From positions 4,902-68,901 of the forward strand of contig CBDHCS010000005.1 in assembly GCA_965261125.1 (NCBI GenBank): DNA of 64,000 nt, given 5' to 3'. The translations under genes and the position numbers were made by a program. Below the pieces are notes generated by a model, which was not told where the DNA came from, did no database searches, and worked only from the letters and a program-made list of their open reading frames with translations. Shown here in pieces: positions 17,060 through 51,394 of this stretch (its first letter is position 1; each line of letters opens with the position of its first letter). This DNA is from Candidatus Poribacteria bacterium. GTDB lineage: Bacteria > Poribacteria > WGA-4E > WGA-3G.

Positions 17060-17149
17060 TGGCAACTTGTTTCAAAACAGCTTGCCCATAAAGGCATGAA
17101 TTACGTGAGGATGTGCATAAAGTGGTTTCCTAACCACACTTTATACATC

Positions 17150-17309
17150 CAGGACTTACGCATTCCCCACGCTTGCTATTCTTAGCCCCTCGCTTGCGGG
17201 GGGTTGGGGGGATAAAGGGGGTAAAACCTTGAAAAGGACAAAAATCAGGGTTAAAATCCGTGAAAGGACAAAATTCTAAACAGGGATACTTGAATTTGCG
17301 TAAGTCCTG
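17150..17309. repeat. MITE-like element, family A copy 3 (carries a 21-bp internal duplication CGCTTGCTATTCTTAGCCCCT)
   Basis: TIRs CAGGACTTACGCA / TGCGTAAGTCCTG. Confidence 0.8.
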
Positions 17310-17345
17310 ACATCAATTTAAGAAATTATTGAAAGGAGAACAGTA

Positions 17346-18659: not shown

Positions 18660-18681
18660 ATTATTCTTCAACTATACATAG

Positions 18682-18714
18682 CGACCTACAAAATTGTAGG
18701 TCGTTATTTCTTTT
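18682..18714 (+). terminator. Rho-independent terminator between convergent genes
   Basis: Hairpin CGACCTACA-aaat-TGTAGGTCG followed by TTATTTCTTTT. Confidence 0.6.
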
Positions 18715-18753
18715 ACCAAGAACTGTCACTCGTATCACATAGTGCTGTGCCTC

Positions 18754-31616: not shown

Positions 31617-31635
31617 TATGAATGCAAAAGATCTG

Positions 31636-32955
31636 TTAATCAAATTCACCACCACATTTTCTGCACAAAATGTAGAACTGGATGTCATCAGAATGGGCGT
31701 GTTGTTTAATAAGATCCACTGCTTGGTCCGGCAAATCTGCTTCACATTTTTGGCATTTATAGAGCGAACCTTCGGGTTCAGGAAATTTTCTGATATCGCC
31801 CCAGATGTCATGAAGCCAGTATTTAAATTCCCATGGAAACTCGGTCTCAACAGCTTTAGATATTTCTACTGCATGACGAATTAATTTTTGGCAATCTTCA
31901 AAGGTTGCAGGTTCATACGGGTGAGGTTCTGTGTGGAGGGGAATCGGTTTGCCTTCGGATGCGGTTTCTGGGTTAAACCTGCGCGAACGTGTCAGCAAGA
32001 TTTGGTCTAACCGTGTGCCTGGTTCTCTCCCTTTTGACCAGACGCGGTAATAACCTCGTCTTTTGACGTTAAAATAACCAGGGGTTGACTTCCCCAGTGG
32101 GTGTGTTGAAGTATCCCATAGCCAACGGTTCCATTTGGAATCGTCGCCAGGAACTGCCCAAATTTTGATTGCATTCGGCCCACCTTGTTCATCCCAAGGA
32201 TAAGGTTCTACATCTTCAATGCCGACCCAGTAAGAGTCTTGGCTGCCCGATTTATAATAGGTGCGAATCCATACGTACCACTTACCAGTTTTTGGGATGT
32301 AAACTTCATAAATACTGCGAGCCCCTCTGGCACTGTCGATGGCTTTGCCGTTAGAGGCTTCTGCCTCATCTACAATTTTTACACCGTTATCAAAATGTAT
32401 TGCAGTTTCTGCTTCAATAATAAGCGTATTTCTTGGAACACGGATCAATTCCTGTCTTGTATTTTTCTCTTCTCGCTCAGTTTCTTCTTTTTCTTCTTCT
32501 TCTGGCAGTGCTTGTTCTGGTTCAGTATAACTATTTCCGAACCGTTGACATGCGCGTTCAAACTGTTTTTCGGAAAGGTTTGCATCGTAAAAGCAATCCC
32601 GGACTCCTTTCTTCCAGAGGTCCAGAAGCAGAAACATAGCTTTTAGATTCCCATCAGGTCGTTTACGGGTGCCGACAACAATCAGCATACCGGTATCTCG
32701 TGAACGACTGACAAGACACAGATGGAGTGGATATTCAGGTGGTGCAACTTTTCGGCTTTTTACGATAAGCGGACTATAATATTTACAGCGATGGTCACAT
32801 CCGGGTATTTTTGCCCGTTTAGCACTACAACATTCTGGGCAAATGATCATGCTGCTGAGAGCAGGACATGTACGCTTACCATTACCGGAACGGCATGTAC
32901 GGCATCTGTGTTGTTTGGTACGTTTTTGTCTGGTAGAAAATCTCTGATGGCGCAT
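31636..32955 (-). CDS. Hypothetical protein with Cys clusters at both termini (zinc-ribbon-like) and an acidic linker
   Basis: 439 aa. N-terminal CRTC...CPEC...CDHRC and C-terminal CQKC...CRKCGGEFD. No family recognised. Confidence 0.45.
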   Translation of the reverse strand: MRHQRFSTRQKRTKQHRCRTCRSGNGKRTCPALSSMIICPECCSAKRAKIPGCDHRCKYYSPLIVKSRKVAPPEYPLHLCLVSRSRDTGMLIVVGTRKRPDGNLKAMFLLLDLWKKGVRDCFYDANLSEKQFERACQRFGNSYTEPEQALPEEEEKEETEREEKNTRQELIRVPRNTLIIEAETAIHFDNGVKIVDEAEASNGKAIDSARGARSIYEVYIPKTGKWYVWIRTYYKSGSQDSYWVGIEDVEPYPWDEQGGPNAIKIWAVPGDDSKWNRWLWDTSTHPLGKSTPGYFNVKRRGYYRVWSKGREPGTRLDQILLTRSRRFNPETASEGKPIPLHTEPHPYEPATFEDCQKLIRHAVEISKAVETEFPWEFKYWLHDIWGDIRKFPEPEGSLYKCQKCEADLPDQAVDLIKQHAHSDDIQFYILCRKCGGEFD

Positions 32956-33394: not shown

Positions 33395-35740
33395 TTATTC
33401 GGTATCTACATCTACATCCACATGCACATCGGGCGCATCACTTGGGCGGTTAACCAGATCAGCGAGATATTCTGCGATCTTGTCTGCGATTTGTCCGGCA
33501 TCCACATCGGCAAAGTTAAAGAGTTCCTTGAGCATCGGTGAAATTGCACCTGTGTCAAGCAACGTATTCGCAAACCGTCCCATGCTGCTTCGGTTGATAC
33601 CGCCTTTGCCATCATTATTGCCCATATCAAGAATTTTGATGCTGTCAATTTGCTCTACAGGACGCATCATTTGTTCAACAATGTCTGGAGCTTCTTCAAT
33701 TAATTCTAAGATTGCTTCTTGAACAAGGACACGTTGTTCAGCAACGTTGCGGGCTTCATATTCCGCCATTTCACCTTGTGCTTTGGCTCGTGCTTCCGAC
33801 AACACCGCATCAGCGAGACGTTCAATCGGCTGTGCTTGTGCTTCGGCACCGAGGATTGCAACGTCACGTTGCCATTCCGCACCTTTTATCTGTTCGGTGG
33901 CAGTAACATTGACTTCCGCCCCCATGCGTTCTGCTTCAGCCTCTAACTGTTCTTTCTCTGCAAGTGCGGTAAGCTGCTGTTTGTTGGCAACATCAATCTT
34001 CCTATCTTCGTCAGTAAGTGCGACGCGTAATTCTTGACCGATACGTGCCTGCTCCACCGTCAACATTTTATTAATTTCAGTAAGTTCCACCTGTTTGTTT
34101 TGGTCAATTTGTGCGGTTTCAACAACAAGGTTTTTCTCAATCTCGCGCTGTTGCACCTGCTGTTCTTGTGCGAACTTGGCTGTCTGCACAGTCAACTCAC
34201 GTTCAACATCTCGCAATTCAACACCCTCTTCCTGAACAATACGGGCTTTTTCTACGAAGAGTTGTTTCTCAAACTCACGTTCTTGTACCTGTTGTTCTTG
34301 GCTTATTTTATTGACTTCAACGGCTAACGTCTTGGCGATCTCAGTAAGTTCCACCTGTTTGTTTTGGTCAATTTGTGCGGTTTCAACAACAAGGTTTTTC
34401 TCAATCTCGCGCTGTTGCACCTGTTGTTCTTGGGCGAATTTCGCAGTTTGCACAATTAAGTCTCGCTCAACATCTCGCAATTGGACACCCTCTTCCTGAG
34501 CGATGCGCGCTTTTTCTACCATGAGCTGCTTCTCTATCTCGCGAACTTCAATTGTCTGTTCCTGTTCAATTTTCTCCATTTGCACAGTGAGATGTTGTGC
34601 AATTTCAGCAAGCTGAACAACTTTGGTTTGGTCAATTTGTGCGGTTTCAACGACGAGGTTTTTCTCAATCTCGCGCTGTTGTACTTGTTGTTCTTGGGCG
34701 AATGTCGCAGTTTGAACTTCTAATTCTAACTCAACTTCTCGTAATTGGACACCCTCTTCTTGAGAAATACGGGCGCGTTCAACCTCCAACTTCATTTCAT
34801 ATTCACGTTCTTGGACGCTCTGTTCCATCTCAAATTGGAACTTTATGGTTTCAGCTTCACGTTCTGCAGCATAAATAGCGATATTTTTCTGTTGATCAGA
34901 TTCTGCCCATGCTTGCTCTTGTTCTGCTTCAAGTATCTGAATACGTGCCTCAACATTAATTTGTTCGATGGCAACTTCTTTTGCTTTAATGGCAGCTTCT
35001 TTATCTCGCTCTTGTTCGGCAGTGATTTCAGTAATTTCTCGGATACCGACAGCGTCAAATCGGTTGTCGGGATTGAGCGTTTCAATGGGAGTTTGATCAA
35101 CCTGGATAATGGAAACGGTATCAAGTGTCAATCCATTATGGAGTCTCAGGTTTTCTCCGCAAGCATCCTGAACGTTCTCAGCGAATTCAAGACGTTTCTG
35201 TAGCAGGTTTTGAATTTCGCTTTCGGCAGCAACGCTTCTTAACGCACCATCCAACATCGGTTCAATTAATTCACGGATAGTTTCTGGTGTCATGGATTTA
35301 TCGCCGAGGGCTTGGGCAGCTTTTAAGATTTCATCATCATCAGGATTAACTTTAATATAGAAAACGACTTCAACGTCAGCGCGGTTGAAGTCGTTGGTAA
35401 TCAAGGAATCAGAGGCTTCGCGAACCACCTCAATTCGCATGGTATTCAGAGAGATCTCTTTGATTTCATGGATAATGGTGTTAACCCAGAGACCACCCGT
35501 AATACGAATCTTTTCCCTTGCACCACCTGTTCTGACCAATGCTACATCTGCTTTCGGTATCCTATAGCGGATAACAGAGCCTATAAAAGCAGCCAACCCC
35601 CCAATGAATACAACTGCTATAACACCCATCCAGCGCAGAACGTTAGTTTGGTTTTCAGCATCAATTAGTCGATCATAAGCGAAATACCCAATAACACTTA
35701 CAACAACAATTAAAAAAATAACAGCCAGAATAAGACGCAT
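33395..35740 (-). CDS. Flotillin / SPFH (band-7) family membrane protein with a very long coiled-coil region
   Basis: 781 aa. N-terminal TM plus SPFH domain, then a Q/E-rich coiled coil made of 88-aa repeats. Confidence 0.75.
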   Translation of the reverse strand: MRLILAVIFLIVVVSVIGYFAYDRLIDAENQTNVLRWMGVIAVVFIGGLAAFIGSVIRYRIPKADVALVRTGGAREKIRITGGLWVNTIIHEIKEISLNTMRIEVVREASDSLITNDFNRADVEVVFYIKVNPDDDEILKAAQALGDKSMTPETIRELIEPMLDGALRSVAAESEIQNLLQKRLEFAENVQDACGENLRLHNGLTLDTVSIIQVDQTPIETLNPDNRFDAVGIREITEITAEQERDKEAAIKAKEVAIEQINVEARIQILEAEQEQAWAESDQQKNIAIYAAEREAETIKFQFEMEQSVQEREYEMKLEVERARISQEEGVQLREVELELEVQTATFAQEQQVQQREIEKNLVVETAQIDQTKVVQLAEIAQHLTVQMEKIEQEQTIEVREIEKQLMVEKARIAQEEGVQLRDVERDLIVQTAKFAQEQQVQQREIEKNLVVETAQIDQNKQVELTEIAKTLAVEVNKISQEQQVQEREFEKQLFVEKARIVQEEGVELRDVERELTVQTAKFAQEQQVQQREIEKNLVVETAQIDQNKQVELTEINKMLTVEQARIGQELRVALTDEDRKIDVANKQQLTALAEKEQLEAEAERMGAEVNVTATEQIKGAEWQRDVAILGAEAQAQPIERLADAVLSEARAKAQGEMAEYEARNVAEQRVLVQEAILELIEEAPDIVEQMMRPVEQIDSIKILDMGNNDGKGGINRSSMGRFANTLLDTGAISPMLKELFNFADVDAGQIADKIAEYLADLVNRPSDAPDVHVDVDVDTE
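34077..34790. repeat. Intragenic tandem repeat, about 264 bp x about 2.7 copies, inside the flotillin gene
   Basis: Near-identical DNA copies start at 34077, 34341 and about 34600. They encode ETAQIDQ...QQREIEKNLVV units. Confidence 0.8.
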
Positions 35741-35780
35741 TAATTTCTCCTATTATAAACATCACTTTCAGAAATTGTTT

Positions 35781-37196
35781 CTATTGGAAGATTATGTCAC
35801 TGTTTTCGTGTGTCCTATAACGTCCCTTGAGTGGTTGGCGTGGAGAGGTTTGCCATGCGAGACTTGCAAGATAACAGAGTGTATTTTCAATTAAAGGTTT
35901 AGCGACAGCGGTTTTATGGGCATCCCGTGTATCTACGGCAAAACCGACGTAGTATCCGTCCCCCCACTGTAACTGGATGCCGATTGGACCGCCATTGTCT
36001 TCTCTAACAACCAACTTTCGATAACTTGGGTCATTGGTAACCCAATGGTCATCCGTCACCAAATTATCAACATTGATCTTATGGGGCCATGTAAACATAC
36101 CCGTTTTTTGACCGTCTTCGGTAATCGTCACATTGGCATCTCCAGCCTCAACGACATCAATAGGATGGCGTTCCACAGGTAGCCAGTCGCCACGCCATGC
36201 GGATTCAGATGCGTGGACACCATCAGGTGGTACGATATTGTTATCCATAGCGGATGTCCACACAACACCGCCTTTTCTAACGAAGTCTTTGATCGCATCG
36301 TCAGCGTCTTCAACAAAATACTCTCCGTCATGCCCCGTGGCAAACCAAGTGAACCAAATAATATCATAATTGGTGAGTGTAACGTTAGAGAGTTTTACGG
36401 CATTATTTGGGTCGCCTCGGTTATCAGGGTTATCGTTAATATGGACTGTTGTATATTGAAATTCTAAACCTTCAAGCGTCGTGAGAGATTGCAAAACGGC
36501 AGGTTCGCCTGTCATATTATCACCTACAACAATTAGCACGCGGAAGACACCTAACGGCACAATCTTTATAGATGACATGATGTCGGAAAACGATTGTGAG
36601 TGTGGCAAGTCACGAAGATTTCTTATTGATTTCTTGAATTCCCGAGAGTTTAAGTCTAAGTTGATCCTCCGTCCTTCGAAATTCACATGTTCGTAGAAGC
36701 TGATATGGCATCCACTAAAAGGGAAATTCGGACCGCGCTGAATACGAACAGAAGAGATCATATCGTTCATGCCGATTTCGAATATTGAACTGATATCACG
36801 CATGATAAGACTCCGCTGCCCGCTGAAATCCACATCGCGAAATACCTCTATGATAACAGGGACTGCCCCATACACCGGCGGGGTCGGATGCGCAGCTGGA
36901 CTAAAACTTATAGATGTAATTGCATCACCAAAATTGTAAGGTATCTCATGGATGTTTGGATAGAATCCTGGTGCTAAAACCAATCGCCTTCCTTTATAAT
37001 TAGCATGTTCATGAAAAATTGCCTTGTAGTTCGGAGACGCAGTGAAACCAGGTCCTTGGTATATCTTAATAGAAGATATTATATCCTGGACACCTATTTC
37101 GGTTGTATTCGGGATGGATTCTACGAGGGTTATCTTGCGTCCTTGATAATTAACGTGCTCAAAGACTTCAACGACTAACCTCGGTGTGCTTGCCAT
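35781..37196 (-). CDS. Protein with four N-terminal beta/gamma-crystallin-like Greek-key repeats and an uncharacterised C-terminal domain
   Basis: Repeats FEHVNYQGRKITL / FHEHANYKGRRLVL / FRDVDFSGQRSLIM / FYEHVNFEGRRINL. Lies immediately upstream of flotillin on the same strand. Confidence 0.45.
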   Translation of the reverse strand: MASTPRLVVEVFEHVNYQGRKITLVESIPNTTEIGVQDIISSIKIYQGPGFTASPNYKAIFHEHANYKGRRLVLAPGFYPNIHEIPYNFGDAITSISFSPAAHPTPPVYGAVPVIIEVFRDVDFSGQRSLIMRDISSIFEIGMNDMISSVRIQRGPNFPFSGCHISFYEHVNFEGRRINLDLNSREFKKSIRNLRDLPHSQSFSDIMSSIKIVPLGVFRVLIVVGDNMTGEPAVLQSLTTLEGLEFQYTTVHINDNPDNRGDPNNAVKLSNVTLTNYDIIWFTWFATGHDGEYFVEDADDAIKDFVRKGGVVWTSAMDNNIVPPDGVHASESAWRGDWLPVERHPIDVVEAGDANVTITEDGQKTGMFTWPHKINVDNLVTDDHWVTNDPSYRKLVVREDNGGPIGIQLQWGDGYYVGFAVDTRDAHKTAVAKPLIENTLCYLASLAWQTSPRQPLKGRYRTHENSDIIFQ

Positions 37197-38551: not shown

Positions 38552-38755
38552 TCACTCGGAATCTTGAAGTCGGAGCACGACGACTCCCGGCATCAAATCT
38601 AAAATAGGGTTAAGCGAAGCATATTGTTCAGCAGTGTATCCACAATCTATTCGCCATAACACCTGAACATTACCCTCATCGTAGATAACACCGGTGGCAA
38701 GTTTATTCCCTTCGGCATCTTCTAACTGAAAACTTCTGCGGCGTTTTGTGTCCAT
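38552..38755 (-). CDS. Small hypothetical protein (67 aa)
   Basis: ORF only. Confidence 0.2.
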   Translation of the reverse strand: MDTKRRRSFQLEDAEGNKLATGVIYDEGNVQVLWRIDCGYTAEQYASLNPILDLMPGVVVLRLQDSE

Positions 38756-38811: not shown

Positions 38812-39651
38812 TCAAAGTTCAACAAAATCGGCATCTACGTGATGAGAGATTACGCCGGCTTCATGGCCACGGTTGAGCAATTCCTGCACCGCTTTTCTGC
38901 CGCTTTCTCCATAATCCAAAGTATAATCATTAACATACATGCCAACGAACTTATCCGCGAGATCGGTTTCCATGTCTCGTGCATAAGTCATCGCATATTC
39001 AAGCCCGCGCTCCCGATGTTCAAGTGAATATTGAATACTCTGTTTTAACAAAGAGGTAATAGCGTGAATTTTCTCGTCACCAAGATTGCGGCGGATAACA
39101 TTTGCGCCAAGAGGGAGTGGCAATCCGGTTTCTTCGTGCCACCATTCCCCTAAATCAACTATTTTGTGTAGCCCTTCCCGTGCGTAAGTCAGTTGTCCTT
39201 CATGAATAATGAGTCCTGCGTCAACTTCACCTTGTTGGACAGCCGCAATAATCTTGTCAAAGCGGTACGTTTTTGTTTCAACCTGGGGCTGGTAAAGTTT
39301 CGTTGTGAGATATGCAGTCGTCATCTCTCCCGGTATTGCGATACGTTTGCCGGTGAGGGTTTTCATTGGTGTTTTGGAAACGATTAGAGGACCGTACTTA
39401 TCCCCAATGCTTGCCCCACAGGGCATAAGTGCGTAATTATCTGCAACATACGCATAGGCATGAACGGAAATCGCTGTAACTTCAAGTTCAGCTGCGAGTG
39501 CACGTTTGTTCAAGGTCTCAATGTCTTCTATAACGTGAACAATTTCAAACGGTTCGGTGGCAATAAGCCCTTTTGCGAGGGCATAAAACATGAAAGCATC
39601 ATCAGAATCAGGGCTATGCCCAATCCTAATTTTTTCAGTCTCTGGCATCAA
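38812..39651 (-). CDS. Futalosine-pathway menaquinone biosynthesis protein, MqnA/MqnD family
   Basis: 279 aa. IGHSPDSDDAFMFYAL N-terminal signature of the MqnA/MqnD periplasmic-binding-like fold. Confidence 0.65.
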   Translation of the reverse strand: MMPETEKIRIGHSPDSDDAFMFYALAKGLIATEPFEIVHVIEDIETLNKRALAAELEVTAISVHAYAYVADNYALMPCGASIGDKYGPLIVSKTPMKTLTGKRIAIPGEMTTAYLTTKLYQPQVETKTYRFDKIIAAVQQGEVDAGLIIHEGQLTYAREGLHKIVDLGEWWHEETGLPLPLGANVIRRNLGDEKIHAITSLLKQSIQYSLEHRERGLEYAMTYARDMETDLADKFVGMYVNDYTLDYGESGRKAVQELLNRGHEAGVISHHVDADFVEL

Positions 39652-39694
39652 ATGTTCCTTTCTAACATTGTTGTTTCCGTATGTTTATGTTATC

Positions 39695-40639
39695 ATGCAT
39701 AACATGGTAACACAAAAATATCTCTATCTTATGGCGATTCCGTCTCAACTGACAGAACTGGCATCAGCGGAATCGGTTGCGTTAACGGGTGCTGCTCCAG
39801 ATGCGTCCGGTATTACGGTTTCGGATACGTGTACTGATGTGTGCCGAGGTGCTTATCTCAAAAGTTGTACCGAAGTTCTCTTTGAAACCGGAAACGTATC
39901 AGAACTCTATGCAAATATTCGGTCTGCAGATTTGCATGCAGATGGATTTCGGGTGTCAGTTATCAAAAAGCCGCGCAACCTGAATGTTGACTCAATGGCA
40001 TTAGCCCGCGAGTTAGGCAGTTTCATTGAAGGCAAGCCAAATTTGTCGTCTCCGCGAGTTGTTTTTTTAACCGTTATTACCCCAGATAAAATTTGGTTCG
40101 GTAGACTTCTCTCTGAATCTGATGGCATGTGGGTTGCACACGATCAGCGTCCACATGTGACTTCCAGCTCATTACCTGCAAGACTTGCGCGCGCCCTCGT
40201 TAACCTTGTGGCTTCTCCCGGCGAACATCTGCTTGATCCGTGTTGTGGCACCGGTACGATTGTCATGTCGGCAGCACATTGCGGTGTGCAAGCATCGGGC
40301 TATGATATTAACCCGCGTATGGTCGGCGCAACAACCAAGAATCTGAAGCATTACGGACTTACAGCTGACGTGCAATTATGTGATGCGCGGACGATACAGC
40401 GGCAGTTTGACGTGATTGCTACAGACCTACCTTATGGCATAAGTCTTGTTAAAGATACTGCCGTGACTACTGAAATTTTAGGAAATCTACGGACGCGCGC
40501 GCCAAAAGCAGGGTTTATTGATATCCGTGACCTTAGCCAGCCGCTTACTGATTTAGGGTATCAAGTGGATAGCATTATTCCCGTTCCGAAGTTGCGTCTT
40601 GTTCGGCGTATTTTTATTACTTCCAGCGGCGATCAATAG
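39695..40639 (+). CDS. SAM-dependent RNA methyltransferase (UPF0020 / Trm11/RlmL-like, N6-adenine/guanine-N2 type)
   Basis: SAM motif LLDPCCGTGTIVMSAA and a DLPYG catalytic motif. Start uncertain (ATG at 39695 or 39704; the ORF is open from 39590). Confidence 0.65.
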   Translation: MHNMVTQKYLYLMAIPSQLTELASAESVALTGAAPDASGITVSDTCTDVCRGAYLKSCTEVLFETGNVSELYANIRSADLHADGFRVSVIKKPRNLNVDSMALARELGSFIEGKPNLSSPRVVFLTVITPDKIWFGRLLSESDGMWVAHDQRPHVTSSSLPARLARALVNLVASPGEHLLDPCCGTGTIVMSAAHCGVQASGYDINPRMVGATTKNLKHYGLTADVQLCDARTIQRQFDVIATDLPYGISLVKDTAVTTEILGNLRTRAPKAGFIDIRDLSQPLTDLGYQVDSIIPVPKLRLVRRIFITSSGDQ

Positions 40640-41079
40640 TCATCAATATTTTCGTAAAAATCAGTCTCCGGTAGGTACTCACCTTCGTCAAGCTCCTCCT
40701 CTTCATAGTCTTCATATTCGTCTAAATTCAAGAGTGAGTCAAGTTCACTCAGATTATCGATGTAGATTTTGCAAATCCAACCATCACCTTCCGGTACACT
40801 GTTGATGATTTCAATATCTTCTTCAAGTGCTGTATTGACTTCGTAAATCTCGCCAGCAACGGGTGCATAAAGATAAAAGTTTCCCCCGGTTTCGGTTTCA
40901 ATTCTACCAATAATTTCGCCTTGTTCGCACTCTTGTTCAGGGGACACATCAACAAAAATAATTTCGCCGTAAAGATGTTGGGCGCGTTCTGTGATGCCAA
41001 TAGTTCCCTCTGTGTCAACAACTTCAATCCATTCGTGCGTAGTTGTATATTTTACTGTGCTCAACGTGCATTCCTCCAA
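40633..41079 (-). CDS. Glycine-cleavage H-protein-like protein that lacks the lipoyl-lysine and has an acidic C-terminal tail
   Basis: HEWIEV...GITE...APVAGEIYEVNTALEEDIEIINSVPEGDGWICKI matches the GcvH fold. The ESVKA lipoylation motif is replaced by ETETG. Confidence 0.65.
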   Translation of the reverse strand: MEECTLSTVKYTTTHEWIEVVDTEGTIGITERAQHLYGEIIFVDVSPEQECEQGEIIGRIETETGGNFYLYAPVAGEIYEVNTALEEDIEIINSVPEGDGWICKIYIDNLSELDSLLNLDEYEDYEEEELDEGEYLPETDFYENIDDY

Positions 41080-41091: not shown

Positions 41092-41694
41092 TTACTGTAA
41101 TTCTGTTTCTGTAATTCCAATACTTTGAAGCTGTGCTTTGAAAGTTTTTAACTCTTTTTGCTGAATCTGAATTGCGATATTTGGGGTTGGGTCATATTCA
41201 ATGTTTGTTACTTGACCTCCCAAGCGTTTACATAGTTTGACAACTGCACCTATATGAGAATAGGGGACACTTACGTCTAAGTTGTGATAAAAAGTCCGAG
41301 TTTCTAAAGTTGCATTTTTAAGGCATGCGCGTGCGCATGTGCCATAAGCTCTAATTAATCCACCAATTCCAAGGTTGGTCCCACCATAATACCGTGCAAC
41401 AACGATTATCGTATTAGATAATCCGGTAGCACGAATTGCAGTGAGGATAGGGGTTCCTGCGGAATGTATCGGTTCACCTGCATCAGTTGCATATTCAAGA
41501 TTTTTATTGCCACTACCGATGCGATAAGCATAACAGTAGTGTGTAGCTTGACGGATCCGCGCTCTAACATCAGCAACAAACTTTTTGACTGCATCGTGGC
41601 TATTTACTGCTGATGCTTCTCCAAAAAAACGAGACTTTTTCACTACATGTTTAGCGGTAGCGATTCCGACAATTGTTTGGTACTCGCTTGACAT
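41092..41694 (-). CDS. yigZ: IMPACT / YigZ family protein
   Basis: 200 aa. UPF0029 N-terminal motif (FFGEASAV....HYCYAYRIG). Confidence 0.75.
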   Translation of the reverse strand: MSSEYQTIVGIATAKHVVKKSRFFGEASAVNSHDAVKKFVADVRARIRQATHYCYAYRIGSGNKNLEYATDAGEPIHSAGTPILTAIRATGLSNTIIVVARYYGGTNLGIGGLIRAYGTCARACLKNATLETRTFYHNLDVSVPYSHIGAVVKLCKRLGGQVTNIEYDPTPNIAIQIQQKELKTFKAQLQSIGITETELQ

Positions 41695-41842: not shown

Positions 41843-43030
41843 TTAAAAATCCTGTCCGATTGAAAAAGTATAGACTGCAGTGCCTTGGACGATATGAATG
41901 CGTTCATCCTCAGACACACTCGGCTTGAATTGAGGGGTATAAGCGGCATTTAGTGTAATGTTTCCGAACCGTGCCCCAAATCCGAAGCAGAGACCTTCTG
42001 CTTTCCAATTTCGCTCCTCCATTTCAAACGTAGCATCTTCCAAAAGAAAAACCGAAGCGTAACGCTTTTCAGTGTCCCTAAGGTATCCGATTCTACCGCC
42101 GATACGGTCGTGAAACCAAACTTCAGCGCCAAGGTTCGCTCGGACACCATCACTAAAAGGAGGGTGTAAATCAAATCCGAGCCGTAAAGACACGTTTGAA
42201 ATTTCGCGTTGGTAAGTTATACCCGCAATAAGATTGCGGCGAATTTTATCTGGAATAACGGGATCAACAAACGACAATCCATTACTTAAATTACGGATGA
42301 CAATGCCTGCCTGAAGTGCATTTCCAAATTTCTGAATGAGTCCGATATCATAGACGTAACCACGTCCGAGATGCTCGGTTTCCGACGGATCGGTAACTTT
42401 AGACCGCAACCACTTTGCATCAAATCCAATGAAGGTGCCTCTGAAACAATTTACACCGTAACCGAGTCCAATAGCAAGGTTATTTTTTGGAAAACTATTG
42501 AGTGCTTTTCCTTCGTGGTCGACACGGCGAAAGGATCCTTCATGTGCTGTAGATAAAGCAAAACCTATAGTGCCGAATCTGCCTATTGGAAATGCGCAAT
42601 TCAATGTTTCAATACCGGCAGCACGCTGTTCATACTGGCTATAATCCTCGTAGTTTGCATTGAAATTCGGTTTAGAAAGGAGGGCAACGGTCCGTGGAAA
42701 ACGTGCCATGTGAATTACAAATTGATCTCCCTTAGCAACACCGATACCAGCGGGGTTGTTACCAAGCGCGTTTGCGCCAGTGGTTGCCCCGACAAAACTT
42801 CCACCCATTCCACGATGCTCAGCACCAAGCAACTGTTTGAGAAATCTGTCTGCTTCTGCAGTTGTATTTGCCACTGAGGCGGTACCATTTGAAACATAAA
42901 AACAGGAAACAAGGTAGAATAGGCAAATCAACAAAGATATTTTTAAATACTGTAGTGACTGAATCTGGCAGAGCGAGGATCGTAAATTTCTTTTCACTTT
43001 CTTACTTACTCCAAGGGCATATTGTAGCAT
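41843..43030 (-). CDS. Putative outer-membrane beta-barrel protein
   Basis: Signal-like segment, alternating amphipathic strands, C-terminal ...YTFSIGQDF ending in Phe. The ATG at 43030 lies inside a repeat; a GTG at 42997 is an alternative start. Confidence 0.45.
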   Translation of the reverse strand: MLQYALGVSKKVKRNLRSSLCQIQSLQYLKISLLICLFYLVSCFYVSNGTASVANTTAEADRFLKQLLGAEHRGMGGSFVGATTGANALGNNPAGIGVAKGDQFVIHMARFPRTVALLSKPNFNANYEDYSQYEQRAAGIETLNCAFPIGRFGTIGFALSTAHEGSFRRVDHEGKALNSFPKNNLAIGLGYGVNCFRGTFIGFDAKWLRSKVTDPSETEHLGRGYVYDIGLIQKFGNALQAGIVIRNLSNGLSFVDPVIPDKIRRNLIAGITYQREISNVSLRLGFDLHPPFSDGVRANLGAEVWFHDRIGGRIGYLRDTEKRYASVFLLEDATFEMEERNWKAEGLCFGFGARFGNITLNAAYTPQFKPSVSEDERIHIVQGTAVYTFSIGQDF

Positions 43031-43301: not shown

Positions 43302-43697
43302 CTAAGCTGAACATAGTGTCACCTGTGCGACAGCATAATTAACTGTGTGCGACAGGCTAACAAAGGTTGTGACAACGCCGAGTTCTGATGCATATTGCTT
43401 TACTTTTCCGTGCAAAACAAGCGAAGGTTTTCCAAGAGCGTCCGCGCAAATTTCTACATCCTGCCAATTCATTCCAGTGGTTAAACCGGTACCGAGTGCT
43501 TTAAGGGTTGCCTCCTTTGCAGCAAAGCGGGCGGCAAGCCGTGCGTAACGCGTTTGTGTTTCTCCGCAATAGGCAAGTTCTTGAGGCGTATAGACGCGAT
43601 GCTCAAACCTACTGCCCCATCGAAGCGATAGATGCCTAATCCGTTCAACCTCAATAATATCAATACCAATTCCTTGGATATTTTGTTGGAGCATCAA
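43302..43697 (-). CDS. acpS: Holo-[acyl-carrier-protein] synthase
   Basis: 131 aa. GIGIDIIEVERI motif. Confidence 0.85.
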   Translation of the reverse strand: MMLQQNIQGIGIDIIEVERIRHLSLRWGSRFEHRVYTPQELAYCGETQTRYARLAARFAAKEATLKALGTGLTTGMNWQDVEICADALGKPSLVLHGKVKQYASELGVVTTFVSLSHTVNYAVAQVTLCSA

Positions 43698-43718: not shown

Positions 43719-44546
43719 TCACCGATAAAGAGTATCTATCATCCGTGCTGCACGGACTGTAGCCTTAACATCATGGACGCGTACAATATCTGCCCCATGT
43801 GTGATTGCCCAACAGGCCGTAGCGAGAGAGCCTTCAACCCTTTCAGTTACAGGAAGGTCTAATAAGTTGCCAATAAAGGATTTTCGTGATGTGCCGATTA
43901 ATATCGGCTTGTTTAGTTGTCTGAATACGTCAAGATGTTTTAAAACCTGTAAATTCTGTTTGATAGTTTTGCCGAATCCGATGCCAGGGTCTACAATTAT
44001 ACGGTTTGGATCAATGCCATTTTGTATTGCATCGTCAATCCAACTTTCTAATGCCTCGTAAATTTCTTTCACGACATTTTGATACTGTGGTGCCTGTTGC
44101 ATTGTACGTGGTGTCCCCTTCATGTGCATAAGTATAACACCCGCTTCCATTTCTGCTGCAACGTGTGCCATCGCGGCATCCCTACGAAGTGCGGTAATAT
44201 CGTTGATGATATGTGCCCCAGCTTCAAGTGCTTGTTGTGCTACCACTGCTTTTGTAGTATCAATGGAAAGTGGAACATTTAGTTGTTCAGAAACAACTGC
44301 ACGGATAACCGGTAATATCCTTTCTAATTCTACTTTTGCTGTCACCGGTTCCGCCCCTGGGCGCGATGATTCCCCGCCGATGTCAATAATAGTTGCCCCT
44401 TCTGCTACCATGGTTTTGGCATGCGCAACAGCAGTGCCAACATCAAGATAAGCACCGCCATCCGAAAATGAATCGGGGGTAACATTTAGAACACCCATGA
44501 TGTGGGTGCTGTCGCCAAAAGAGAGCGATTTACCACGGCAGTTCAT
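43719..44546 (-). CDS. folP: Dihydropteroate synthase
   Basis: [14 protein letters not shown] pterin-binding signature. Confidence 0.9.
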
Positions 44547-46454
44547 ATAAGAGGCTTAGCGGGCAACTGCGGCCGGGGTCCGAGTATCTCTTCAATTTCT
44601 TCAGTAATTAACGTTTCTCGTTCTAACAAGGCATCGGCGAGTAATTTCAAACCCTCAAGATTCGTTTCTATAATCTCTTTTGCCTTTTCGTAACACTCCG
44701 TTATGATGTCAAAAACAGCTTTATCAATAGCAATTGCTGTTTCTTCACTGTAATCCTGGTGTACTGCCAGTTCTTTGCCCAGGAAGACCTGTTCATCTCT
44801 TCTGCCGAAAGCCAATGGTCCCAATGGACTCATCCCCCATTGTGTGACCATTCGACGGGCAAGATGGGTTGCTTGTTCAAAATCGTTTTGTGCGCCAGTC
44901 GTCTGCTCACCGAAGATAATTTCTTCAGCTACACGCCCACCGAGTGCAAAAATAATATGTGCAAGGAGTCCCTTCTTATTTAGATTATGTCGTTCTTCCA
45001 GGGGTAGCTTAGCTGTTACGCCCAACGCTCTCCCACGCGGAACGATTGTACATTTATAGTTAGGGTCACTTTCTGGCACAAAATGCAACATGAGCGCATG
45101 TCCTGCTTCATGATAGGCAGTGATGCGCCGTTCTTCGTCACTAATCACCAAACTACGACGTTCAGGTCCCATCAGAACGCGATCTTTCGCTTCATCAAAG
45201 CAGCTCATATCAATCGTTTCTTTGTCTTGCCTCGCGGCAAGGAGCGCGGCTTCGTTCGCCATATTTTTCAGGTCCGCTCCTGAAAATCCAGGTGTCGCTT
45301 TCGCTAAGATCTCCAAGTTGACATCTTCAGCTATTTTATAAGGTTCTTTTGTGTGAACGTCAAGAATCGCTTGCCTGCCTCGAACATCGGGTAAATCAAC
45401 GATAATCTGACGGTCAAACCTGCCGGGGCGCAATAGGGCAGGGTCAAGAACATCCGGACGGTTTGTAGCTGCGATCACGATGACACCTTCAGACGACTCA
45501 AAACCTTGCATGCCGACAAGCAGTTGATTTAAAGTTTGTTCGCGTTCGTCATGCCCGCCGCCGATGCCAGCCCCTCGATGGCGACCCACAGCATCAAGCT
45601 CATCAATAAAAATGATACAAGGTGCGTTCTTTTTACCCGTTTCAAATAGGTCACGGACTCTGGATGCACCCACCCCGACAAACATTTCAACAAAATCGGA
45701 TCCGCTGATGGTAAAAAATGGGACATCTGCTTCACTTGCAACGGCTTGCGCCAGCATTGTTTTACCCGTACCGGGGGGGACCGACTAACAACACACCTGT
45801 AGGAATTGTTCCACCCAGTCTCTCAAACTTTTTAGGTGCTTTGAGAAATTCAATAATTTCTTCAAGTGCCTCTTTTGCCTCATCTACCCCTGCGACATCT
45901 TCAAACTTTGGTAACTTTTCGTTTTCCGTATGGAGTGTGGCACGACTTTTACCAAAGGAAAGTGCGCGGTTTCCGCTCCCTTGCATCTGCCGAGATAGAA
46001 AAATCATCAACCCCAAAAATATCAATAACGGAACTATTGTTGTGCCGAAAACGAGTAACCAATTAGGAAAATTAGAGGCAGGTTTGGCATTGTACGGGAT
46101 GCCGACGTTATCAAGTCTTTCCTGGATTCCATAATCGTCATTTGTATCACGGCTTGCCTTAAATTCTCCTGCCCATTTTTCAGGCACCACCATATTTGGG
46201 CTTTCCAATTCTATCCTAATTTCCATCAGATAATTCTCGTGAAACTTACCTTCAATCCACTCGTCATCAAGAATCAAATGCCCATCAAAGCGGTTACCTT
46301 TATCCTTTACGTAGTTTGGATCTATGTAGTTATGAAAGTCGGATGTTGCTAACTGGATAACAAGGTCGCCACGGTTGATAAGTTGGTAAATAGCGACAAC
46401 AACAACTAACCCCAAAATAAACCACACAAACATGTTTTTTGTGTTCTTGTTCAC
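44543..46454 (-). CDS. ftsH: ATP-dependent zinc metalloprotease FtsH, interrupted inside the Walker A motif by a 1-bp insertion in a C7 run (plus-strand G7 at about 45769..45776)
   Basis: N-terminal ORF ends ...LLVGPPRYG*. Removing one C restores [16 protein letters not shown]-terminal ORF has the AAA and HEAGH protease domains. ftsH-folP synteny as in other bacteria. Confidence 0.85.
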
Positions 46455-46783: not shown

Positions 46784-47962
46784 GTGCGTATTATTTTTTA
46801 TACGGGCAAAGGTGGTGTCGGCAAAACGACTATCTCTGCTGCGACAGGCATGAAGTTGGCATCGCTTGGATATAAGACGCTTGTTATCTCACTTGACGTA
46901 GCACATTCGCTCCGCGACTCGTTTGATAGTGAAGCGTCCCTGATAGCAGAGCGTACCGAAAAACAGATACACATCTGCGACAATCTCTGGATACAGGAAA
47001 TTAACGTTCAAGAAGCGATTACTGAATATTGGGATGAGGTTTACAACTACATCCGTTCTTTACTGAATCGTTCTGGTCTTGAAACGCTTGTAGCAGAAGA
47101 GATAGCTGTATTTCCGGGGATGGAAGAGATCTGCGCGCTGCTTTACATCAACCAGTATGTCCGTGAAAACACATACGACGTTATTATCCTTGACTGTGCG
47201 CCGACAGGTGAATCGTTGCGGTTTGTTAGTATCCCTACTACGCTTGAATGGTATATGAACCGCATCTTCAAATTAGAGCGGAATCTTGCAAGAATCGCAG
47301 GGCCTGTGATTGAAAAGGTCAGTTCTGTCCCATTACCAAAGGATGCTTATTTCCAAAATATCCAGAACCTCTTTGATAAATTAGAAGGGATTGATACAGT
47401 ACTAACGGACCCGAAAATTACAACTGTGCGCTTGGTAACAAACCCAGAAAAAATTGTCATCAAAGAGACACAACGTGCATTTATGTACTTCTGTCTTTAC
47501 GGGTTATGTATTGATGCGGTCATTATTAACCGTATTTTTCCTGAGGGTATTGATGTAAAGTTTTTTGAAGCTTGGAAACAGACACAACAGCAATATATTG
47601 AAGAAGCCGAGAACTATTTTTCGGATGTGCCAATTTGGAAGGTTAATCTTTTTGACGATCAGATTGTTGGGGAAACAGGACTCCGTAGGTTAGGAGATGT
47701 CCTCTATCCTGACATTGATCCTGCAGAAAAGTTCTCGGATCAAAGTCCGTATCAATTTCGGAAAGTTGACGGTATTTATCAACTTGTGATGCAGCTTCCA
47801 TTTTTAACCAAGCAAGAAGTTAACCTTGCCAAGCATGGTGATGAATTAATCGTTACAATTGGCGGTTTCAAGCGACATGTTGCTTTACCACGCAGCCTTG
47901 CAAGCACTAAAGCAACAGGAGCAAAACTCACTGGACAGCAACTTGTTATTACCTTTCAATAA
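46784..47962 (+). CDS. ArsA/Get3-family P-loop ATPase fused to a C-terminal Hsp20/alpha-crystallin-like domain
   Basis: GTG start. GKGGVGKTT P-loop and DCAPTGESLRF signature. The C-terminal about 90 aa form an HSP20-like beta-sandwich (GDELIVTIGGFKRHVALP). Confidence 0.75.
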   Translation: MRIIFYTGKGGVGKTTISAATGMKLASLGYKTLVISLDVAHSLRDSFDSEASLIAERTEKQIHICDNLWIQEINVQEAITEYWDEVYNYIRSLLNRSGLETLVAEEIAVFPGMEEICALLYINQYVRENTYDVIILDCAPTGESLRFVSIPTTLEWYMNRIFKLERNLARIAGPVIEKVSSVPLPKDAYFQNIQNLFDKLEGIDTVLTDPKITTVRLVTNPEKIVIKETQRAFMYFCLYGLCIDAVIINRIFPEGIDVKFFEAWKQTQQQYIEEAENYFSDVPIWKVNLFDDQIVGETGLRRLGDVLYPDIDPAEKFSDQSPYQFRKVDGIYQLVMQLPFLTKQEVNLAKHGDELIVTIGGFKRHVALPRSLASTKATGAKLTGQQLVITFQ

Positions 47963-48039
47963 ACTTTTTGTAAATTCATACGTCTCATATTGCGCTTTAA
48001 AGGAATGAATCTCAATACAGATAAGAGCGTATTAACCAA

Positions 48040-48813
48040 ATGATGATATTTCCAATTCCGAGAAGGAAAAAAGGTGAACCATTTAGTGACGAACAAACTC
48101 CGCCACGCCATTACTTAGTTAATACCCTCACAGATAAAGCCGTACTTACTGTAGCCTTTACCACATTTTTAACGTTCTTATTACTGTTTTTATTACCGAT
48201 CAGGTCGTTAGGTATCGGCGCTATCTGGTGGCTTTACCCAAACCTATTGATTGCAATCGGATGGTTTGGCTATCTCATCCGATTAAATAGAAATATCGCT
48301 GAGGATGAATCGTCCCAATTGTTATTCCATAGTGTTTTATTTGGATCGGCAGCTACAGCAACATACTTGCCGTTGGACTGGTTATTTTCGAGAGAATTGC
48401 GGTTTATCGTCTACACCAGTTACGATTTTTGGGTAAATGTAACGACACCTATTGGCTTGATAATGACTTGGGTGCTTTTCGCAACATTAGCCGTTTACTG
48501 CTACCATCGGCTTGAAATGTTCGGTCTGCACCGTTTCGCTGCTTCAGGGATAACAGGGATTGCCGCTGCGATTGGAAGCATCGTTATCTACGGACTTGGA
48601 AAAGAACTATGGGAATGGAATGTCCTGCGTGTTGATAATATTCCACACATTGCAACCGTTCCAATTTTTATCCCAATTACATTTTTACTTACCTACACCC
48701 TCTATCCTTACTACTTTCACCGTAGGCAACATGCATTGATAGCTGGGATACGGTGTGGGCTTTTCATGGGAATGGTGATGTTTTTGAGTTTTTTCGTCTT
48801 TTGGCGTATATAA
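48040..48813 (+). CDS. Polytopic membrane protein, unknown function
   Basis: 257 aa with about 6 predicted TM helices. Immediately downstream of the ArsA-Hsp20 gene. Confidence 0.45.
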   Translation: MMIFPIPRRKKGEPFSDEQTPPRHYLVNTLTDKAVLTVAFTTFLTFLLLFLLPIRSLGIGAIWWLYPNLLIAIGWFGYLIRLNRNIAEDESSQLLFHSVLFGSAATATYLPLDWLFSRELRFIVYTSYDFWVNVTTPIGLIMTWVLFATLAVYCYHRLEMFGLHRFAASGITGIAAAIGSIVIYGLGKELWEWNVLRVDNIPHIATVPIFIPITFLLTYTLYPYYFHRRQHALIAGIRCGLFMGMVMFLSFFVFWRI

Positions 48814-48927
48814 AAGTAAGAAGCAGGATAATTAACGTTTGACAAATCATAGATTAGGCGCGCGGATGTAAACTCAACCTCTTTAGAAAATATGGCATGA
48901 AAGGATTCGTTAGCATTAGGAAAAAAC

Positions 48928-49488
48928 ATGGACTTACTTGAAAAGAAAAGGATACGTTCAACAACGATATTGGCGGTACGTCGTAACGGGCAAATCGCTA
49001 TTGGTGGAGATGGTCAGGTTACGTTAGGTGATACGGCTATTAAACATAGTGCTCGTAAAATTCGTAAGATTTATCAGGATAGTGTTCTTATCGGGTTCGC
49101 GGGGTCTGGTTCAGATGCGCTTACCCTCTATGAAAATTTAGAGAAGAAATTGGAACAGTACCGAGGCAACCTGCAGAAAGCTTCGGTGGAGCTCGCAAGA
49201 GATTGGCGTAGTGATCGTATTCTTAGACGTGCGGAAGCTTTGATGATAGCGATCAATGAAAACGATAGCTATCTGATTTCTGGTAACGGCGATCTCATCA
49301 TCCCTGACGACGATATTCTCGCTATTGGTTCAGGTGGTTCAATTGCGCTCTCTGCTTCCCGAGCTTTACTTAAATACTCAGAGCTGACCGCCGCTGAGGT
49401 TGTCGCTGAAGCATTAAAAATTACGAGTGAAATCTGCATCTACACAAACGCGCAGATTGAAATTGAATCAATTGAAACTGAAGAATAG
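48928..49488 (+). CDS. hslV: ATP-dependent protease subunit HslV
   Basis: TTILAVRRNG...GGDGQVT N-terminal Thr active-site region. Confidence 0.9.
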   Translation: MDLLEKKRIRSTTILAVRRNGQIAIGGDGQVTLGDTAIKHSARKIRKIYQDSVLIGFAGSGSDALTLYENLEKKLEQYRGNLQKASVELARDWRSDRILRRAEALMIAINENDSYLISGNGDLIIPDDDILAIGSGGSIALSASRALLKYSELTAAEVVAEALKITSEICIYTNAQIEIESIETEE

Positions 49489-49569
49489 GATAACCCAAGT
49501 TGCTACCTATAAGTTTTTAGACATGCAAATACCGTTTTTTATTGAGAATAGTTCGTTATAGGTGAACTA

Positions 49570-49826
49570 TTGTAGAGCAACCTGTTAGGTTGCGTCCGCT
49601 ACGGCACAACCTAAATGAAGTTTAAGAAAATAAATCCTAAATGAAGTTTAAGAAAATAAATCGGTAATTTGGCGAGGTTAGGAAGAAATCAACGGTATGA
49701 ATGCCATTAAGGCATTCCCCGCCTTGCCAGCGGGGAGTACACCTACCTCATACGGATAGAAAATTACCGAATTAATAAATTAATCTTCATACAGATTGTG
49801 CTACAGAGATGGCAACTTAGATTAGG
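49570..49826. repeat. Family-D composite MITE, copy 7, inserted between hslV and hslU. Contains an internal 27-bp tandem duplication CCTAAATGAAGTTTAAGAAAATAAATC
   Basis: Read directly; same module order as copy 6. Confidence 0.75.
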
Positions 49827-49894
49827 ATATTCAAAATTTCTGTTATTTTGGTTGCGGCACAGCGGATGTGCCACCACCTTTTTAGGAGGTTACA

Positions 49895-51394
49895 TTGGAG
49901 AAATCAACTGTTGAAACGAAAATTTTGGCGGACGCGTTAACCCCCCGGCAAATTGTGGAAGAGCTGGATAAGTATATTATTGGGCAGTTTGAAGCGAAAC
50001 GGAGCGTTGCGATTGCGCTGCGTAATCGCGCCCGTCGGCAGATGCTTGCGGACGATATGCAAGATGAAGTTTCACCGAAAAATATCATCATGATCGGCTC
50101 AACGGGTGTCGGTAAAACAGAAATCGCCCGTCGCCTCGCGCGCCTTGTTGATGCACCATTTATCAAAGTCGAAGCCTCTAAATATACGGAAATCGGTTAC
50201 GTTGGGCGTGATGTTGAATCAATGATTCGCGATCTTACGGAACTCTCTGTCAGCAGAGTGAAAGTAGAACAGACCGCCTCTGTTGAAGAAGAAGCATTAA
50301 AATTAACCGAAGAACGTTTATTAGACAGCTTATTCCCGATGCCTCGGTCTTTAAAAAGTCAACCCACTCAAGAACCCCCCGATGACCTTGATATAGATGA
50401 AGATATAGATATAATAGATGAAGATATAGATGAAGACGACATCCCATTTCCGTTTGATTTAGTAGACACAACTGACGAACAAAATGAGGCGTTAGAAAGA
50501 CAACGCGAACGACACCTCAAGACGCGTGAAAAATTACGGCAGCAATTGAAGGATGGTAAATTCGAAGATAAAGACGTTGAAATCAACATGAAAAGTCGAA
50601 GTATGCCGTTTGTGGAGATATTTTCGCCGGGTGGTATTGAGGAGATGGACATTAACTTTAAGGATATGTTCAGCAGCATTCTCCCGAATCAGACAAAAAA
50701 ACGGCGGGTGAAGGTATCCGAAGCACGACAAATTCTGGTGCAAGAGGAAGCGGAAAAACTAATTGATATGGATGCTGTCATCAGTGAAGCGATTGAACGC
50801 GTTGAAAACTCTGGGATTGTCTTTTTAGATGAAATTGACAAAATTGCAGGGCGCGAATCTCGACAGGGACCGGATGTGTCACGCGAAGGTGTACAACGTG
50901 ATATCCTGCCAATTATTGAAGGGAGCACCGTCACAACGAAATATGGTGCAGTGCGTACACATCACATCTTGTTCATTGCTGCGGGTGCCTTTCATGTCTC
51001 TAATCCGTCAGACCTCATTCCTGAACTTCAGGGGAGGTTTCCTATCCGCGTTGAACTCAAAAGTCTAAATAAAGATGACTTCAAATCTATTTTGACCGAA
51101 CCGAAAAATGCATTAGTCAAGCAGTATACGGCACTCCTCCAGACCGAGGGAATAGAAGCAGATATTACTGAAGATGCGATTGACGAAATCGCTGCGCTCG
51201 CGTTTCAAGTAAACGAGTCTGTGGAGGATATCGGTGCCCGTCGTCTACACACGATCATGGAAAAACTTTTTGAGAACCTGTTTTTTGACGCGCCTGATCT
51301 TGAGGAGAAGGGTGTTACTGTTGATGCAGATTATGTCAGAGGTGAATTGGCAGAAATCGTTAAGGATCAGGATCTGAGTAGGTATATTCTTTAG
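49895..51394 (+). CDS. hslU: ATP-dependent protease ATPase subunit HslU, with an acidic [17 protein letters not shown] insertion in the I-domain
   Basis: TTG start after AGGAGG. Walker [16 protein letters not shown]. Confidence 0.9.

Follow-up and report, generated by a model that had tools for sequence, protein, structure and literature searches.

The stretch of DNA analysed here (the window) comprises 64,000 nucleotides (nt) of the genome of a Candidatus Poribacteria bacterium (assembly GCA_965261125.1, contig CBDHCS010000005.1, positions 4,902 to 68,901 of the forward strand). On its minus strand the window carries a gene for a protein related to GcvH, the H-protein of the glycine cleavage system. 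The H-protein is the classic example of a carrier with a swinging arm, and its lipoyl-lysine hardly ever varies. The protein from the window has no lysine at this site and ends in an acidic tail. As judged from sequence comparison, it belongs to a proposed new, apparently phylum-specific subfamily of pseudo-H-proteins within the known GCV_H superfamily, with the tail as the defining trait of this subfamily. The open reading frame (ORF) extends over 40633..41079 and would encode 148 amino acids (aa) if translation began at the upstream in-frame TTG at 41079. Relatives of the protein, however, begin with MSTVKY. This start matches another TTG in the same frame, the second one, at 41064, and this codon is found 8 nt after a GGAGG sequence; the true start is therefore probably TTG 41064, which gives a protein of 143 aa. 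A promoter and terminator scan of 40300-43400 gave no signal above chance on the minus strand, including the stretch between the GcvH-like gene and the adjacent yigZ. The 143-aa protein contains 40 Asp and Glu residues versus four Lys and Arg, and its only two lysines, K5 and K99, are both remote from the lipoylation hairpin.

Residues 10-128 matched the Pfam family GCV_H (PF01597) with 89.3 bits at a cutoff of 22.2. The motifs in which an earlier note on this DNA had recognised the H-protein fold (GITE, PVAGEIYEVN and PEGDGW) were all found, as was the sequence ETETG, which the same note had read in place of the lipoylation site ESVKA. The equivalog cutoff of TIGR00527 was missed (89.7 versus 115.85 bits) and so was the subfamily cutoff of NF002270 (100.6 versus 117 bits). 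A phmmer search against PDB sequences yielded GcvH of Thermotoga maritima with an E-value of 1.5e-25, the query stretch IETETGGNFYLYAPVAG being aligned with IESVKAA-ADVYAPLSG. This alignment placed Thr-59 (143-aa numbering) in the lipoyl-lysine column, with one residue inserted after the hairpin tip, and MAFFT alignment with Escherichia coli GcvH gave an identical register. An AlphaFold2 (AF2) model built from a 27-sequence family alignment was confident over residues 1-123, with block means of the predicted local distance difference test (pLDDT) of 88-97 and about 94 overall. Foldseek placed this predicted structure closest to T. maritima GcvH (1zko; template modelling (TM) score 0.88, root-mean-square deviation 1.1 Å), with the H-proteins of E. 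coli, human, cattle and pea close behind. Because no lysine is present at or near the lipoylation hairpin, the protein is predicted to be incapable of lipoylation at the canonical site, in agreement with the earlier note. The alignment that had been proposed there as a check revealed no conserved lysine at the hairpin, the residue being absent from 326 of 327 family members. A sequencing error as the source of the missing lysine was ruled out by this count and by the two substitutions that a change of the ACC codon to AAA or AAG requires.

The tail had been described previously as a poly-acidic stretch of 40 residues. Its acidic nature was borne out by the analysis but its length was not, as the segment YEDYEEE aligns with the ordinary acidic C-terminal helix of GcvH (YEALLEDE in E. 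coli). The true extension comprises about 20 disordered residues (124-143), or 26-27 if counted from the conserved Tyr. Among 327 family members the tail, counted from this Tyr, was on average 26 residues long, versus 8 in E. coli GcvH, and consisted of 53% Asp and Glu, 0.7% Lys and Arg and 21% aromatic residues. The last residue was Tyr in 251 members (77%) and Phe in another 29. A role of the tail as a generic sorting or degradation tag was ruled out, because Poribacteria sequence amounting to about 1.9 Mb contained no further ORF with such a tail.

At least 327 distinct relatives were found to combine loss of the lysine with an acidic tail, and all pooled statistics refer to 327 unique full-length members. 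The best 120 database relatives were 62-97% identical to the window protein (97% for the nearest, P0001); all showed the hairpin IETETGG or IETSDGR, none had the lysine, and those with a named organism were assigned to 'Candidatus Poribacteria'. In a HMMER scan of 1.84 billion cluster representatives, the clade of the window protein formed one cluster at 50% identity. The next-best representatives, at about 40% identity (P0121, P0123, P0128, P0130 and P0138), were likewise devoid of the lysine and had acidic, Tyr-rich tails; a profile made from these five retrieved 120 further members, and the lysine was absent from all but one. In the alignment the lysine column was occupied by Asp in 178 of the 327 members, by Thr in 103, Glu in 18, Ser in 14, Asn in 10, Ala in three and Lys in one. 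Glu three positions before this column (K-3) was present in 313 of the 327 members and Gly eleven positions after it (K+11) in all of them; the HEW motif was also kept, and the Gly directly following the tip residue was invariant.

Comparison of family members with the window gene gave ratios of nonsynonymous to synonymous differences per site (pN/pS) of 0.32 in the domain and 0.19 in the tail; the synonymous sites were saturated. These values indicate that the whole protein, including the tail, is under purifying selection and that the tail is at least as constrained as the domain. Conservation was then contrasted between 65 non-redundant lysine-less members and 134 canonical representatives, the latter having been chosen as lysine-bearing. 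The only conserved positions lost in the lysine-less members were S-V-K and the Leu of 'LG', whereas 16 positions were conserved in the lysine-less family alone: T9, E14, R27, E45, E47, Q48, G60, E72, S90, E92, G93, D94, E103, Y120, E122 and the C-terminal Tyr. The proposed subfamily signature consists of the GCV_H fold, a hairpin E-x-x-[D/T/E/S/N]-G with a one-residue insertion, the motifs T-H-E-W, R27, G-x-E-[F/Y]-E-Q and S-P-E-G-D-G-W, and the tail Y-E-x-Y-E-E...Y/F. Most of this signature is present in the window protein, which departs from the consensus at three positions, with V90 for Ser (typical of a sub-clade with NSVPEGDGW), C46 for Phe or Tyr and D103 for Glu.

A genome scan covering one genome per GTDB species gave 343 confirmed matches, of which the best 80 were kept. 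The identities peaked at 68%, since the search pattern excluded the NSVPEGDGW sub-clade to which the window protein belongs. All of the best 80 loci were from Candidatus Poribacteria, and the FtsH protein encoded next to the most divergent member (locus L006) had only Poribacteria-named relatives; the family therefore appears to be specific to this phylum, as far as its members can be placed, and vertically inherited. In an alignment of 147 rows, the lysine was absent from only 12. Outside the family, its loss was sporadic among GcvH homologues (P0223, P0253, P0260, P0263 and P0125), and these five proteins had no acidic tail. P0263 is a tandem two-domain lysine-less homologue of 287 aa, and P0125 is a protein of 1391 aa with several lysine-less GcvH-like repeats. 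Full-text literature searches yielded no account of a lysine-less, acidic-tailed bacterial H-protein.

Features of the GcvH-like gene and its neighbours (positions in the window)
Feature	Position	Strand	Details and evidence
Lysine-less GcvH-like coding sequence	40633..41064	minus	143 aa from TTG at 41064; stop codon TGA at 40633-40635; ORF list, Pfam GCV_H and start of relatives
Predicted GcvH-fold domain, residues 1-123	40696..41064	minus	AF2 pLDDT about 94; top Foldseek matches are GcvH structures
Hairpin tip E56-T57-E58-T59-G60 (GAA ACC GAA ACC GGG) in place of E-S-V-K-A, T59 in the lysine column	40885..40899	minus	Alignments; differential conservation
Disordered polyanionic tail, residues 124-143, ELDEGEYLPETDFYENIDDY, ending in Tyr	40636..40695	minus	pLDDT <50; family statistics; pN/pS 0.19
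Shine-Dalgarno-like GGAGG	41073..41077	minus	8 nt upstream of TTG 41064; sequence reading
Putative RNA methyltransferase, UPF0020/TIGR01177 type, convergent	39590..40639	plus	Overlaps the 3' end of the GcvH-like gene by 7 nt
yigZ/IMPACT-family gene	41092..41694	minus	27 nt upstream of the GcvH-like ORF; UPF0029 112 bits, TIGR00257 159.8 bits
Protein X, PorV/PorQ-family outer-membrane beta-barrel, tentative start	41843..43030	minus	NF033709 79.3 bits, E 3.8e-22, below the cutoff of 90; no Pfam match
acpS (holo-ACP synthase), upstream end of the acpS-X-[yigZ]-gcvH-like unit	43302..43697	minus	Pfam ACPS 70.9 bits

In the window, the gene lies between the genes for the RNA methyltransferase and the YigZ/IMPACT protein and not next to gcvT or gcvP, as the earlier note had described. 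The yigZ gene is probably co-transcribed with the GcvH-like gene. The true start of the methyltransferase gene is probably located further downstream, because its orthologues have 310-313 aa. Neighbours were counted within 9 kb of the lysine-less gene in 88 loci, using tblastn with the window proteins. The gene for protein X was found in 85 loci, folP in 82, ftsH in 81, acpS in at least 65, the methyltransferase gene in 64 and yigZ in 63. In the deepest branches the order of acpS, X and the lysine-less gene persisted while the flanks varied: an Omp85/BamA-like gene was located downstream in L005, L090 and L091, a gene for a tetratricopeptide repeat (TPR) protein in L006, and a PrmA-like gene and plsY in L089, from which ftsH and folP were absent. 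Locus L089 (GCA_900174595.1) also contains a gene resembling the RuBisCO large subunit at 16650..17957 on the minus strand, 6 kb downstream of its lysine-less gene. The yigZ and methyltransferase genes are thus dispensable neighbours, and the constant ones are housekeeping or envelope genes that offer no coherent functional clue. The placement that the earlier note had taken as a pointer to function consequently carries little weight. No gcvT or gcvP was found in the window or among the called genes of 12 loci (L001-L008, L089-L092), and no lip genes were among the neighbours of the GcvH-like gene.

In the window, ftsH (44543..46454, minus strand) is split into two ORFs by a frameshift near 45757-45765, where the Walker A motif contains a run of seven C; the sequence GPPGTGKT needs six. 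As the orthologues of ftsH are single ORFs of 638 aa, a homopolymer assembly error is most likely, rather than a pseudogene. Protein X is predicted to be an outer-membrane beta-barrel because of its match to the PorV/PorQ family of NCBIfam, which reached 79 bits and remained below the cutoff. A functional link between X and the GcvH-like protein is unlikely, since the X family consists of outer-membrane barrels and no signal peptide could be recognised by eye at the N-terminus of the GcvH-like protein (MSTVKYTTTHEW). The window also encodes an M6 peptidase with a CHU_C sorting domain of type IX secretion (29484..31850, minus strand); together with the PorV/PorQ-like X, this peptidase suggests an export system resembling the type IX secretion system in this Poribacteria genome.

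A second GCV_H gene was found neither in the window nor within ±10 kb of the lysine-less gene in the 88 loci. The canonical representatives nearest to the family came from a sponge (a mitochondrial-type protein of Sycon), Thermoanaerobaculia and Bacteroidales, and none from Poribacteria. Gene counts for whole genomes are given in Table S7 of Waterworth et al. 2021 (PMC8546597), which lists, in the part analysed here, kofamscan assignments to KEGG for 29 metagenome-assembled genomes (MAGs) of Entoporibacteria. According to this table, K02437 (gcvH) was called at least twice in 17 of the 29 MAGs, once in ten and not at all in two; K00605 (gcvT) and K00281 (gcvP) were each called in 26, and lpd in nearly all. 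The same table gives exactly one gcvH for each of its 17 Tethybacterales genomes. Seven of the tabulated MAGs were also represented among the analysed loci (PCPOR1, PCPOR2b, PCPOR4, PNGco_C_bin3, PNGco_C_binSS2, SB0670_33 and SB0675_22). Six of these are listed with two or three K02437 genes (PMC8546597), yet only one GCV_H gene was found within ±10 kb of the lysine-less locus. The three MAGs tabulated with neither gcvT nor gcvP, including PCPOR1, have exactly one gcvH call each (PMC8546597), in keeping with a second gcvH that accompanies these two genes; the lysine-less gene of PCPOR1 is L023. On the basis of these published KEGG counts, the lysine-less protein is most likely a paralogue that exists beside a normal glycine cleavage system with gcvT, gcvP and lpd.

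The protein was compared with several relatives and functional analogues of the H-protein. Canonical GcvH (PF01597, TIGR00527, NF002270) has the fold in common with it, and identities to GcvH of T. maritima and E. coli were 39-41%. The shared core includes HEW, G23, G33, E56, P68, G71, N77, N88, P91, G95-W96, L111 and Y117, and both proteins are acidic overall. In contrast to canonical GcvH, the lysine-less protein has lost the lipoyl-lysine together with the conservation of S-V-K, contains the one-residue insertion in the hairpin, bears the longer tail and is not linked to gcvT or gcvP. GcvH-L of Streptococcus pyogenes and Staphylococcus aureus (PDB 5a35) is likewise a second paralogue outside glycine cleavage that is encoded away from gcvT and gcvP, in an operon with genes for SirTM, a macrodomain protein and LplA2. 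It retains the lipoyl-lysine and is ADP-ribosylated by SirTM. GcvH-L was a structural neighbour of the AF2 model (Foldseek E 5.4e-7), while the sequence match was marginal (phmmer E 0.16). Unlike the lysine-less protein, GcvH-L has been described as a lipoic acid carrier (PMC12440151), and an acidic tail is not part of its description; genes for sirtuin, macrodomain and LplA proteins were absent from the inspected loci. The chlamydial 'not_gcvH' family (TIGR03077) and the Desulfovibrio-type family NF045810 are also curated H-protein homologues outside glycine cleavage. The lysine-less protein missed both equivalog cutoffs (51.9 versus 144.05 bits and 30.3 versus 150 bits, respectively), and taxa and gene contexts differ as well. 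LbpA, too, is a GcvH-like single-domain protein recruited beyond glycine cleavage; LbpA proteins are reported to bind lipoate, and their genes to accompany the hdr-like sulfur-oxidation genes of the sHdr system (PMC6067878). The lysine-less protein differs from LbpA in the absence of the lysine, and there was no hdr-like gene among its listed neighbours.

The nearest conceptual precedent is Abitram/Simiate (FAM206A), which is GcvH-derived, functions outside glycine cleavage and binds actin; it is likened to the lysine-less protein by description only. Abitram/Simiate is a eukaryotic protein that is about 20% identical to GcvH and reportedly lacks counterparts in bacteria and archaea; its C-terminal part is the more conserved one and contains a characteristic conserved group of acidic and hydrophobic residues (PMC3859600). 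With regard to the tail, the polyanionic docking peptides with a C-terminal aromatic residue may be compared. Acidic tails with an aromatic end are known from E. coli SSB (...DDDIPF), T7 gp2.5 and T4 gp32, and the -EEY ends of tubulin and EB1 are of the same kind. The analogy would be one of mechanism only, since the folds and contexts of these proteins are unrelated to the lysine-less protein. In SSB-type proteins, the long C-terminal tail with its negative charge is an established module of interaction (PMC2965674).

Taken together, the lysine-less H-protein is best read as a non-catalytic binding module, probably one that engages other proteins and carries no cofactor. The paralogue has kept the barrel-sandwich body, but its lipoyl-lysine hairpin tip has given way to a tight polar turn, [D/T/E/S/N]-Gly with one inserted residue, and its acidic C-terminal helix continues into a disordered polyanionic tail, about 26 residues long, ending in Tyr or Phe. 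No covalently bound group would be shuttled by such a protein, given that its tip position may hold a carboxylate, hydroxyl, amide or methyl side chain; the fixed Gly that follows the tip points to a conserved turn geometry. The body may present the surface recognised by H-protein-binding enzymes, as Glu(K-3), Gly(K+11) and HEW are kept. We take these residues to function in recognition by lipoylating enzymes and in holding the loaded arm. The tail, anchored by its terminal aromatic residue, could dock in a basic groove of a partner. In the most specific form of this reading, to which we assign a probability of roughly 0.4, the pseudo-H-protein might serve as a regulator, or as a competitor that is not consumed, for enzymes binding H-protein or similarly acidic carriers (GcvT, GcvP, Lpd, or octanoyl or lipoyl transferases). 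A decoy of this kind would be compatible with the retention of Glu(K-3), Gly(K+11) and HEW. A more speculative version, which we regard as rather unlikely, is a pseudo-substrate regulator whose body mimics apo-H-protein and whose tail mimics an acidic carrier such as acyl carrier protein (ACP), tuning lipoylation enzymes or the glycine cleavage complex; alternatively, the Tyr-ended tail might represent a new bacterial docking motif with a receptor of its own.

Several points weigh against a competitor of H-protein-binding enzymes. A canonical gcvH of Poribacteria was not retrieved, and its lysine was accordingly not seen, so that coexistence of the two proteins is derived from the kofamscan counts. 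If the losses of gcvT and gcvP in three MAGs are real and not gaps in the assemblies, the lysine-less protein survives where glycine cleavage is missing, and this speaks against a regulator dedicated to glycine cleavage. The neighbourhood is functionally mixed (ftsH, folP, acpS, the outer-membrane barrel, yigZ and the RNA methyltransferase gene) and, being known from one phylum, may owe its gene order to common descent and not to a function in common. Furthermore, folding alone may account for the retention of Glu(K-3), Gly(K+11) and HEW, and the family-specific conserved residues point to a new interaction surface and not to the ancestral one. A neo-functionalised adaptor without any tie to glycine cleavage or lipoate is an alternative that we consider less probable than a competitor. 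In such a protein the GcvH fold would serve as a scaffold and the tail would bind a basic partner, e.g. a nucleic-acid-binding or ribosome-associated protein. The adaptor could be likened to Abitram/Simiate, described as GcvH-derived (PMC3859600), and to the lysine-less 'lipoyl' domains of membrane-fusion proteins, and its tail to the partner-recruiting tails of SSB, T7 gp2.5 and T4 gp32, those of the SSB type being established interaction modules (PMC2965674). The 16 positions conserved only in the lysine-less family, the tail as the most constrained part of the protein and the absence of gcvT, gcvP and lip genes near the gene in the loci examined are consistent with it. So is the recurrence of neighbours with a translation flavour, i.e. 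yigZ/IMPACT (63 of 88 loci), the UPF0020 RNA-methylase-type gene (64 of 88) and the PrmA-like gene of L089, and so is the survival of one gcvH-class gene in the three MAGs tabulated without a gcvT or gcvP call (PMC8546597). However, the neighbours are individually dispensable and one of them is convergent, and the body retains the ancestral H-protein determinants.

The composition of the protein, with its tenfold excess of acidic over basic residues (40 versus 4), and the many Glu and Asp residues among the family-specific conserved positions would also suit a cation-binding or buffering protein, in which Tyr-rich carboxylate clusters sequester Ca2+, Mg2+ or Fe3+. We regard this function as improbable, since no recognisable metal-binding motif is present and the conserved terminal aromatic residue suits docking more than chelation. 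Canonical GcvH is very acidic too, and we know of no role for it in metal storage. The suggestion of the earlier note that the protein carries a different modification was disfavoured, because the residue in the lysine column is not fixed among the 327 members. The hairpin geometry is kept and the Gly after the tip residue is invariant, as would be expected of a carrier of another covalent group at the hairpin tip; but one and the same attachment chemistry could not serve for Asp, Thr, Glu, Ser, Asn and Ala, and no candidate modifying enzyme is consistently adjacent, which makes this possibility very improbable. The least probable explanation, to which hardly any weight can be given, is that the lysine-less protein is the sole H-protein of the organism or a decaying relic. 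The known glycine cleavage mechanism carries its intermediate on the lipoyl-lysine, and a lysine-less H-protein could not serve in it. Decay is contradicted by strong purifying selection over roughly 40% sequence divergence and by the tail, a feature that has been gained and conserved. A sole H-protein would agree with the failure to retrieve a canonical Poribacteria copy directly and with the single K02437 call tabulated for 10 of the 29 Entoporibacteria MAGs, but not with the two or more copies tabulated for 17 of them (PMC8546597).

Further features were observed elsewhere in the window. A WD40 beta-propeller protein of 768 aa (3762..6628, minus strand), encoded directly downstream of an extracytoplasmic function (ECF) sigma factor gene, exemplifies a class of repeat proteins of eukaryote-like character that typically occurs in sponge symbionts. 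A flotillin/SPFH protein of 781 aa is encoded beside a beta/gamma-crystallin-domain protein of 471 aa (33395..37196, minus strand), and both genes are syntenic in other Poribacteria loci. On the plus strand (46784..51394), a gene for an ArsA/Get3-like ATPase whose C-terminal domain is HSP20-like precedes an ORF without Pfam match; next come an hslV-like gene, for a proteasome-type subunit, and an hslU-like gene, for an AAA_2 ATPase. Three consecutive long ORFs at 15566..20037 (497, 304 and 427 aa) gave no Pfam match at E <= 1e-5. An ORF-poor, slightly AT-richer region of about 1.9 kb (approximately 11400..13300), in which no Rfam family, tRNA or notable tandem repeat was detected, could represent the remains of a gene or an extended intergenic stretch. 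Downstream of an MqnA-like gene, a 67-aa ORF (38552..38755, minus strand) has counterparts of 68-74 aa at the same place in L001-L004 and represents a conserved small protein.

That a whole phylum maintains a lysine-less copy by purifying selection, and that this copy has acquired a conserved surface and a tail of its own, indicates that the GcvH fold has been recruited for a job that requires no cofactor. Databases label the proteins of this family 'glycine cleavage system protein H', and annotation pipelines probably count them as K02437 as well. Such counting would then inflate the copy number inferred for a functional glycine cleavage component when the metabolism of sponge symbionts is reconstructed. 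If the protein regulates lipoylation or glycine cleavage, it would represent a new type of control for these pathways, and a true pseudo-substrate regulator would provide protein-level control of lipoate or one-carbon metabolism of a kind not described in any organism. If its partner lies elsewhere, the family would be a bacterial parallel to the eukaryotic Abitram/Simiate.

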